Assembly (NCBI GenBank): GCA_002269645.1
Contig: NIVC01002932.1
Span: 1 to 64,000, forward strand
Source of the DNA: Macrostomum lignano
Lineage: Eukaryota
Reading direction: 5' to 3'
DNA: 64,000 nt
This document shows, in pieces, positions 57,399-58,166 of the stretch. The notes below the pieces were generated by a model. The model worked only from the letters and a program-made list of their open reading frames with translations, ran no database searches and was not told the DNA's origin. The position numbers and the translations under genes were made by a program. Positions within the stretch are counted from its first letter, which is position 1. The number at the start of each line of letters is the position of its first letter.

Positions 57399-57608
57399 CA
57401 AAATTTTTGACTAATTTTATCCAAGTTTTAACTAACTTATTCCACTATATTTATCAAATTTTTGGCTAGGGAAATATTATTTTTTAGGGAAAAGCTCAAA
57501 ACATTTTTTGCTACTCCTTGTACGCTAACCAGGTTTTGTAATTTAATATTAGAATTTACGATAGTATAGTCATGTTTAACTTTTCTTATTATTTATTTTC
57601 CGTTTTAG

Positions 57609-58166
57609 CGACTTGTCCTATTAATAGTTACTGCGAGTCTGAAGCTGCACCCGTTTGAAAAATTTGATTTAAAGCAGACCAAACAGAAGCTACAGACCAG
57701 AAACCGGTTTTGCAAACTATTCCTAAGCCGACCAACAATGCTAAAGACAATTTATTCAAATGCTAAAATCCAACTTTATCCAGCAGGAAAACTAACTATA
57801 TATGGCTGTAAATCAAATTCTCAGATAGTCTCAGTTTTACGATTTATCAACGACACTATTAATTGTGTAGATTTTGATTCAGTAAAAATTCAGAGCAGTA
57901 CCTATGTCGGCTTTATTGGTCATCTTTGGCCAAAATTCGGTTTCTCTAGTCTAAAAAGATATGCAGGCTACTATTCGAATTATCTGGTTGGATACGATGC
58001 AGAAAATTTCCCACAAGCAGTTTCTGTTAGATCAGCATCAAAACCAAGGCTTTTTTGTAACATATTTTTTTCGAAAAAGTTTGTTATTATGGGCGTTCAA
58101 AACACTCATGAATTGAATAATATTCTTAACCATGTCAAGGATTTTTTAATCTCTGTTAATAACTAA
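57609..58166 (+). CDS. Divergent TATA-binding protein (TBP)-like protein with two TBP repeats
   Basis: Frame is open from acceptor ttccgttttag|CGA, 129 nt upstream of ATG 57738. LIVTASL..FDLK..RNRF..IQLYPAGKLTIYGCKS and VKIQSS..YDAENFPQ..KPRLFCNIFFSKKFVIMGV align by eye with TBP NIVSTVNL..LDLK..KRF..LIFSSGKMVCTGAKS and FKIQN..YEPELFPG..KPRIVLLIFVSGKVVLTGA. Confidence 0.78.
   Translation, partial: RLVLLIVTASLKLHPFEKFDLKQTKQKLQTRNRFCKLFLSRPTMLKTIYSNAKIQLYPAGKLTIYGCKSNSQIVSVLRFINDTINCVDFDSVKIQSSTYVGFIGHLWPKFGFSSLKRYAGYYSNYLVGYDAENFPQAVSVRSASKPRLFCNIFFSKKFVIMGVQNTHELNNILNHVKDFLISVNN

Follow-up and report, generated by a model that had tools for sequence, protein, structure and literature searches.

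An exon for a TBP-like protein in the flatworm Macrostomum lignano raises the question of where its translation starts. The exon (57609..58166, + strand) lies in the window analysed here, a stretch of 64,000 nucleotides from contig NIVC01002932.1, and encodes 185 aa comprising both TBP lobes in a stop-to-stop frame (RLVLLIVTASL...) that begins at 57609, directly after a phase-0 splice acceptor (57592..57608, + strand) that reads ttattttccgttttag|CGA and has its AG at 57607-57608. The first in-frame ATG (57738..57740, + strand) is codon 44 of this frame, so that the exon is indeed start-less, as an initial annotation of the window had described it. That annotation proposed that a host spliced leader (SL) ending in AUG supplies the initiator, and offered cis-splicing from a site at 57059/57060 as an alternative.

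The TBP-like exon is part of a Polinton/Maverick element

Position 53130 is the left end of a 19.6-kb Polinton/Maverick element that contains the TBP-like exon. The element begins AGTAGT, and its left terminal inverted repeat (53130..53233, + strand; ~104 bp, starting AGTAGT) matches in reverse the right ends of two other copies at 95-97%; the full span, measured in the copy on contig C84, is 19,582 bp with terminal inverted repeats of ~104 bp. Polintons/Mavericks are 15-25 kb in length and generate a 6-bp target-site duplication. The 6-bp flanks of the present elements agree across contigs (C84 left with C1136 right, and C2373 left with C84 right) and not within a single copy with both ends, and this agreement between different contigs suggests assembly switches or recombination between near-identical copies (the L088, L089, L090 and L083 ends).

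Gene content supports the classification. Pfam matches identify dUTPase, PLA2-like and pX-like genes in the window element, with the dUTPase gene (59759..60241, + strand; E 2e-29) having its own ATG and the PLA2-like (60327-60776) and pX-like (62557-63000) matches lying in separate ORFs. Pfam rve and Chromo score above the cut-off in L031, which is on the same contig beyond the window, and in L083, and a protein-primed family B DNA polymerase is recognized by Pfam DNA_pol_B_2 (E 3.6e-20 to 2e-25) in 5/5 long-frame copies scanned. With dUTPase, PLA2-like and pX-like genes, an rve integrase and chromodomain, and a protein-primed PolB, the element is therefore a Polinton/Maverick. Candidate ORFs for a double jelly-roll capsid, penton, packaging ATPase and protease have fitting size and order, the ATPase candidate showing a P-loop only; the protease candidate has weak matches (Peptidase_C5, E 0.038; ASFV S273R, E 0.009), and the capsid candidates have no Pfam match.

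Related copies are numerous. A search of the 764-Mb genome with the 901 bases around the TBP-like exon gave 40 matches (43 candidates, 40 scored), of which 31 are full length at 96-100% identity, and the TBP-like frame gave 83 matches among 97 candidates in the same genome, some groups being at 40-46% identity. We sorted the matches into six families: A, which includes the window, B (L043/44), C (L045/46), D (L047-51), E (L052-54) and F (L055-60).

A two-lobed TBP homologue that begins at a conserved acceptor

The product of the exon is a two-lobed TBP homologue. Pfam TBP matches two stretches of the frame (E 2e-7), a ten-sequence profile compared with the PDB matched TBPs over positions 16-176 (best E 1.4e-9), and an AlphaFold model (mean pLDDT 88.9) has TBPs as its top Foldseek matches (E 2e-7, prob 1.0), at a whole-model TM of only 0.42-0.45 and an rmsd of ~9. 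Strand E3-11 and helix H21-30 of the model lie upstream of the first ATG, where the initial annotation had placed the first TBP strand and helix. Since residues 1-43 form two strands and a helix and include five positions that are invariant among the six families (R1, A9, L28, K36 and P42), Met44 is unlikely to be the start; this residue lies inside strand E44-49 and likely has a structural role.

By comparison among the families, the acceptor at 57608 is not a chance occurrence, because each of them has it immediately in front of the Arg codon with which TBP begins. An equally strong acceptor arose in 10.5% of 5000 shuffles of the AT-rich spacer, and 57608 alone is only modestly unusual; its position directly before the invariant Arg1 is, however, kept in 6/6 families and 19/20 diverged loci. 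The only exception among the 20, for this acceptor and for the donor described below, is L062, where the 5' part of TBP is lost. The phase-0 acceptor before CGA reported in the initial annotation is thus found at the same codon throughout, and an ATG at the TBP start occurs in 0/6 families.

Among proteins, a single TBP query returned 36 candidates, none at E<=0.001, and the TBP profile identified four close relatives, two of which (P0001 and P0002) are gene calls extending across a start that resembles an acceptor, ...LQ|K/R. An alignment query for longer, fused TBP forms found none among the 7998 candidates scored, which is weak evidence. Long open frames in the sister families were considered as N-terminal TBP fusions and rejected, as their extensions are C-terminal. 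The family F frame (L055:1440-2819, - strand; also L056 and L057) continues from TBP without a stop into a deoxynucleoside kinase, giving 460 aa, and an acceptor 5 nt before the kinase ATG suggests that the kinase is also made separately; it is a separate gene in families C, D and E, and there is none at this place in family A.

The upstream SSB-like gene has a conserved donor in its tail

Upstream of the TBP-like exon is a two-exon gene for an SSB-like protein. A TATA-like box (56114..56121, + strand), the putative promoter of the early unit, has a counterpart upstream of exon 1 in 6/6 families. Exon 1 (56200..56507, + strand) has its own ATG, and the homologous exon ends in a phase-2 donor in 6/6 families; intron 1 (56508..56578, + strand; 71 nt, GT..AG) is spliced, its joint being present in 4/8 runs from three studies. 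Exon 2 (56579..57398, + strand) encodes a folded part and a low-complexity tail up to a stop at 57396-57398, and the two exons together encode 375 aa. The SSB identity, as an OB-fold protein of the T7 gp2.5-like/NCLDV type, is only a lead: the predicted model of the exon-2 half has a pLDDT of 52, Foldseek with the exon-2 half only gives Enc34 SSB, DUF2815 and T7 gp2.5 at E 2-4, VIA gives Z 2.1 for DUF2815, and the atlas leads are DUF2738 (0.89) and Pox_I3 (0.86).

The initial annotation saw no evident coding exon upstream of the TBP-like exon, and overlooked a phase-0 donor within K-x-L|V-S of the SSB-like tail (GTGAGT, 57267..57272, + strand) that is the likely partner of the TBP acceptor. 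The window sequence reads TTG|GTGAGT at 57266|57267, and a GTRAGY donor occurs at the homologous L|V-S codon in 6/6 families, always in phase 0, 43-50 codons before the SSB-like stop and 259-619 nt before the TBP acceptor, in SSB-like frames that are 23-54% identical across the six families. The donor is also present in 19/20 diverged loci and in 5/7 further diverged loci with a TBP match, the misses (L073 and L074) being decayed. Of the 44 GT sites in exon 2, none matches U1 better (7 of 11, a joint best score), and the donor fits the top donor motif of the host, which is GT[G/A]AG in the text available from PMC8629364.

Codon comparison indicates that conservation of this donor extends to its nucleotides. 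Between families, four-fold sites have nearly saturated (identity mostly 20-40%; 42-46% for B and C), yet at the donor the Val codon is always GTR and the Ser codon always AGY in 6/6 families. Only the Val position is a fair test of donor constraint, because Ser AGY/TCN switches are slow, and families B and C are not independent; background codon use gives ~0.04 for Val alone over five lineages. All-purine columns make up 2/17 of the invariant four-fold columns, and across the 1035 alignment columns four 5-nt windows have four or more invariant bases; the donor is among them, and no other lies in the tail. K-x-L-V-S could also be kept for a protein reason, as the tail has S/T-P sites and the sequence fits a cyclin-docking-like motif.

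Joining the donor at 57267 to the exon at 57609 leaves the frame open to the TBP stop, giving 517 aa, and exon 1 joined directly to 57609 is out of frame. The predicted alternative intron 2 (57267..57608, + strand), suggested by the conservation of donor and acceptor, would be 342 nt long in the window and 259-619 nt in the sister families, and would include the stop and 3' UTR of the SSB-like gene. Downstream of the donor, families A, B and F have no strong YAG other than the TBP acceptor, and in C and E this acceptor scores highest; in family D it falls under the score cut-off, and three out-of-phase YAG sites lie between donor and acceptor.

Host spliced leader is added to mRNAs of the element

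The host leader ends in AUG, as the initial annotation had supposed. The 25-nt core of the leader published for Macrostomum lignano (PMC8629364) occurs 96 times in the genome, with 0 occurrences of the control, and in two genomic SL RNA genes the exon ends ...GCATG|GTAAG. Near-copies of the leader exon outside the SL RNA genes (L063:1500-1535 and L065:1500-1535) are probably retroposed relics.

RNA evidence comes from 8/20 element-containing public runs, all in the form of Logan contigs, from which rare forms are dropped, and none of the runs is on record as RNA. Splicing is absent throughout from runs X1, X15 and X17, which behave like DNA. Run X8 has contigs that begin at 58318 and at 59744, preceded by unaligned ends of 23 and 22 letters, respectively, that match the 3' part of the leader. 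The corresponding acceptors lie 71 nt before the polymerase ATG (58302..58318, + strand) and 14 nt before the dUTPase ATG (59728..59744, + strand), and a contig of run X7 also starts at 59744. Genomic copies with a non-AG join, as expected of processed copies, were found at none of 57609, 58319 and 59745, and leader joins at 58318/59744 are absent from the three runs without any splicing; mRNAs of this element therefore receive the host leader by trans-splicing, as seen in one run. The two neighbouring acceptors to which the initial annotation had drawn attention thus both exist and both carry the host leader in X8. The leader AUG opens frames of only 9 codons at 58318 and 5 codons at 59744, and both genes have their own ATG.

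A junction into 57609, whether in cis or as an SL loose end, is absent from the contigs of the 8 runs, in which rare forms are dropped, so that this absence favours neither route. Coverage around the TBP acceptor is limited: X7 has none at 57532-57853, none of the X12 pieces listed covers 57279-57833, a contig of X4 is unspliced through both the donor and the TBP acceptor, and a contig of X8 starts at 57597, only 12 nt before the TBP-like exon. Contigs of X1 and X4 match only the TATA-containing stretch at 56091-56133 and then continue into other sequence, which suggests that the same promoter core is present in another element.

The leader as a probable source of the polymerase start codon

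The gene that follows the acceptor at 58318 encodes the protein-primed DNA polymerase. Only its 5' part (58390..59271, + strand), which begins with a C2H2 finger, is present in the window, where the gene is broken by a loss of ~3.16 kb at 59265. A label of 'zinc-finger gene' for the 58390 ORF was dropped, as its long-frame copies (1240-1426 aa) are polymerases, those of five families matching Pfam DNA_pol_B_2. An Endonuclease_7 (HNH-type) match lies between the C2H2 finger start and the PolB domain in 5/5 long-frame copies (L066-L070). At the 59265 deletion, loose ends in X4, X6, X7 and X8 carry on with the sequence of the long form. Frames do not exceed 304 aa in 28 copies whose first 100 residues are identical, and reach 1414-1415 aa in two others, so that the most numerous subfamily looks non-autonomous.

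The polymerase of families A and E starts Met-Pro-x-x-x-Cys from its own ATG, 71 and 14 nt after the acceptor, respectively. Families B, C and D have a phase-0 acceptor exactly at the place of this ATG, followed by Pro-x-x-x-Cys, and family F has the same arrangement with five extra residues; the first polymerase Met in these four families is 86-119 codons in. Upstream of the acceptor, the long-frame copies of B and F have no in-frame Met, and those of C and D have one each, at 35 and 15 codons and in positions that do not correspond; between its TBP and polymerase acceptors, family B lacks any GTRAG. We infer that an AUG-ended leader would restore the same Met-Pro start of the polymerase, and this comparison makes it highly probable that the leader AUG is the polymerase initiator in families B, C, D and F. 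The run contigs were compared only with the family of the window, A, whose polymerase acceptor carries the SL but whose ATG is its own. In an unrooted tree of six rows built from the first 650 residues, with moderate support and no outgroup, D groups with E (93/94) and A does not, a topology that implies at least two switches between an own ATG and an acceptor.

A 16-nt stretch (58279-58294) is common to the spacer before the polymerase acceptor in family A and the spacer before the TBP acceptor in family F (L055/L056, oriented ~3040-3090), and may be an extended branch-point or processing signal.

How the TBP-like exon may obtain its start

The start codon of the TBP-like exon is probably provided in cis, by splicing from the donor at 57266|57267 to give a 517-aa SSB-like::TBP-like fusion. 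One TATA-driven early pre-mRNA would have its first intron cis-spliced and would then meet one of two fates. Where the donor is ignored, the pre-mRNA would end in the spacer and translation would stop at 57398, giving the 375-aa SSB-like protein; where it is used, 57266 would be joined to the TBP-like exon and the last 43 residues of the tail would be replaced by the TBP domain. Such a fusion would link a module that likely binds single strands to a putative TATA-type DNA-binding module, with a putative function at the element's own promoters or ends. The downstream genes would be released from the same long transcript by host SL trans-splicing, like those of a host operon; the polymerase, dUTPase and nucleoside kinase acceptors, which are SL-shown or SL-like, have no conserved donor just upstream, and their phase varies where an own ATG follows.

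The initial annotation favoured the leader as the source of the AUG, and as the main or only route this would imply that the SSB-like mRNA is polyadenylated in the spacer, that trans-splicing at 57609 yields a free 186-aa TBP-like protein, and that 57267 is a protein motif or a non-splicing U1 site. Several observations fit: the host SL ends in AUG and both neighbouring acceptors are SL trans-spliced, the TBP acceptor is in phase 0 at the first residue of the fold in 6/6 families, and poly(A)-like signals stand close before it in families C, D and E, where AATAAA-like hexamers 52-92 nt upstream form the layout expected for SL resolution of an operon. The polymerase of four families also shows the swap of ATG for acceptor, and apparent use of the SL AUG for polymerase in this lineage raises the prior for the same at TBP. 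Cis-splicing is, moreover, described as rare at operon-resolving acceptors in parasitic flatworms in the sections available of PMC12582326. Against leader-only initiation stands the synonymously constrained, in-phase donor of every family, which a gene served only by the SL would not need and should lose, as does the count of families with an own ATG, which is none of six at the TBP start versus two of six at that of polymerase. The classical rule that an SL acceptor is not complemented by an upstream cis donor (PMC8629364, with exceptions in PMC5832876, both as excerpted) does not describe the TBP-like exon, which has its conserved in-phase donor 259-619 nt upstream in six families. We therefore regard the leader as a rather unlikely sole or main source of the start, and cis-splicing as likelier, although both may occur. 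Flatworm acceptors are often common to cis- and trans-splicing (PMC12582326 and PMC5832876, in the portions available), so both TBP products are possible. Because the TBP acceptor is in phase 0, SL use would also give an in-frame product, the free 186-aa TBP-like protein, and a minor share of it is plausible; dual use of the acceptor, with an SSB-TBP fusion made in cis and free TBP in trans, has a little under an even chance. The initial annotation was right that a leader joined at 57609 would be in frame; the leader is not supported as the main route, as no SL junction was seen at 57609 and a conserved in-phase cis donor lies 342 nt upstream.

Other starts, namely cis-splicing from 57059/57060, an unrecognised mini-exon or initiation at Met44, are very improbable. 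The candidate donor of the initial annotation (GTGACA, 57060..57065, + strand) does exist as CAG|GTGACA at 57059/57060, in phase 0 and with a joined frame that is open to the TBP stop (448 aa), and its GT is kept in all 38 family-A loci giving a match. It reads GTGAC, however, rather than the GT[G/A]AG top motif given for the host in PMC8629364, and the alignment shows no counterpart of its stretch in families B-F, so that it is specific to family A; the kind of event was well chosen, and 57267 is the better donor. Met44 is invariant, but initiation there would remove strands E3-11 and E35-38 and helix H21-30 from a conserved segment of residues 1-43. More improbable still is that the conserved donor mainly skips the TBP-like exon and joins the SSB-like gene to polymerase, which, with no need of the SL, would account for the lack of a polymerase ATG in B, C, D and F, the donor and polymerase acceptor both being in phase 0 in these families. 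Families A and E conserve the donor just as well, but their polymerase acceptor is not in phase and the gene has its own ATG after it; the polymerase acceptor of family A carries the SL; and in B, C and D the acceptor takes the place of precisely the ATG codon, an indication that the Met-Pro N-terminus is the same. Cis-splicing from 57267 thus remains our preferred source of the TBP start, and an SL-supplied AUG fits the polymerase gene better than the TBP-like exon.

Comparison with known systems

The arrangement recalls the adenovirus E2 unit, in which the DNA-binding protein and the protein-primed polymerase are produced from one spliced early unit and the polymerase has its start on a short upstream viral exon joined in cis to the main exon. 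In both systems the main polymerase exon takes its start from elsewhere, here, as proposed, from a host RNA in trans.

Polintons/Mavericks, including the proposed adintoviruses (PMC8502044, main text and legends), share with the present elements the protein-primed PolB, the rve integrase and chromodomain, the PLA2-like and pX-like genes, a weakly matching adenain-like protease candidate, terminal inverted repeats starting AGTAGT and, at 19.6 kb, their length. The PLA2X of the alpha adintovirus virion module consists of a PLA2 domain with a C-terminal pX-like domain; here the PLA2-like and pX-like matches lie in separate ORFs. The legend of Fig. 5 in that paper shows a TBP-like gene in a related MELD virus, and neither 'splic' nor 'flatworm' occurs in its main text. 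What sets the elements described here apart is that their early unit is spliced, that their mRNAs receive the host SL in trans, that the TBP-like exon is start-less and that the polymerase of four families lacks an N-terminal ATG.

Initiation at an SL-supplied AUG is known for flatworm host genes (Cheng et al. 2006, as cited in the available text of PMC9851317, PMC5832876 and PMC12582326), in which, as proposed here, an AUG-ended SL at a phase-0 acceptor creates the start of the ORF. The present case differs in that the target is virus-like, that the best case is a replicative polymerase, and that a conserved cis donor also exists for the TBP acceptor. Like ours, the TBP-like proteins known from large dsDNA viruses are a two-lobed TBP fold in a dsDNA virus-like genome, but they usually come with a viral TFIIB (PMC7221094, in the part available), of which none was seen among the ORFs scanned here; in the present element, unlike those viruses, TBP is an alternative terminal exon that is likely fused to an SSB-like protein. 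If so, a TBP domain is added to an SSB-like protein by alternative splicing, an architecture that we found neither in the portion of the viral TBP literature examined nor in the protein searches.

In openly accessible main texts, screened by title and opening of the abstract, we found neither SL trans-splicing nor an SL-supplied start described for Polinton mRNAs, and among the papers listed none names Macrostomum lignano with these elements or deals with a TBP gene of an animal Polinton; TBP and spliced-leader use are likewise absent from the accessible portions of 10.1101/2023.08.22.554363 and PMC11161782. In the one run that carries leader joins, a virus-like DNA element uses host trans-splicing to resolve its early genes. 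At a single codon of the replicative polymerase, initiator ATG and SL acceptor alternate among the families as a natural series. If the polymerase needs the leader AUG, its synthesis could begin only where the leader of the host ends in AUG; this need would be a concrete, testable host-range barrier for a class of elements thought to move between phyla, and would help to test why the terminal AUG of flatworm leaders is retained. The broader proposition, that Polintons are locked to flatworm hosts at translation initiation, with four of six families needing the leader AUG for polymerase, at least two switches and a TBP acceptor read both ways, is a tentative one that we hold to be possible and somewhat doubtful. 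Standard gene calls miss or shorten these proteins.

Other features of the element and window

An array of imperfect tandem repeats of ~35-40 bp (54800-55500) extends between the left end of the element and the early promoter and is also present in other copies. The candidate capsid gene of the window copy is interrupted, and at this interruption lie fragments of a second, different PolB-bearing element on the opposite strand (L031:5055-9400, - strand). Outside the element, a region of 67% GC contains an open frame of 1159 aa (16161-19640, - strand).
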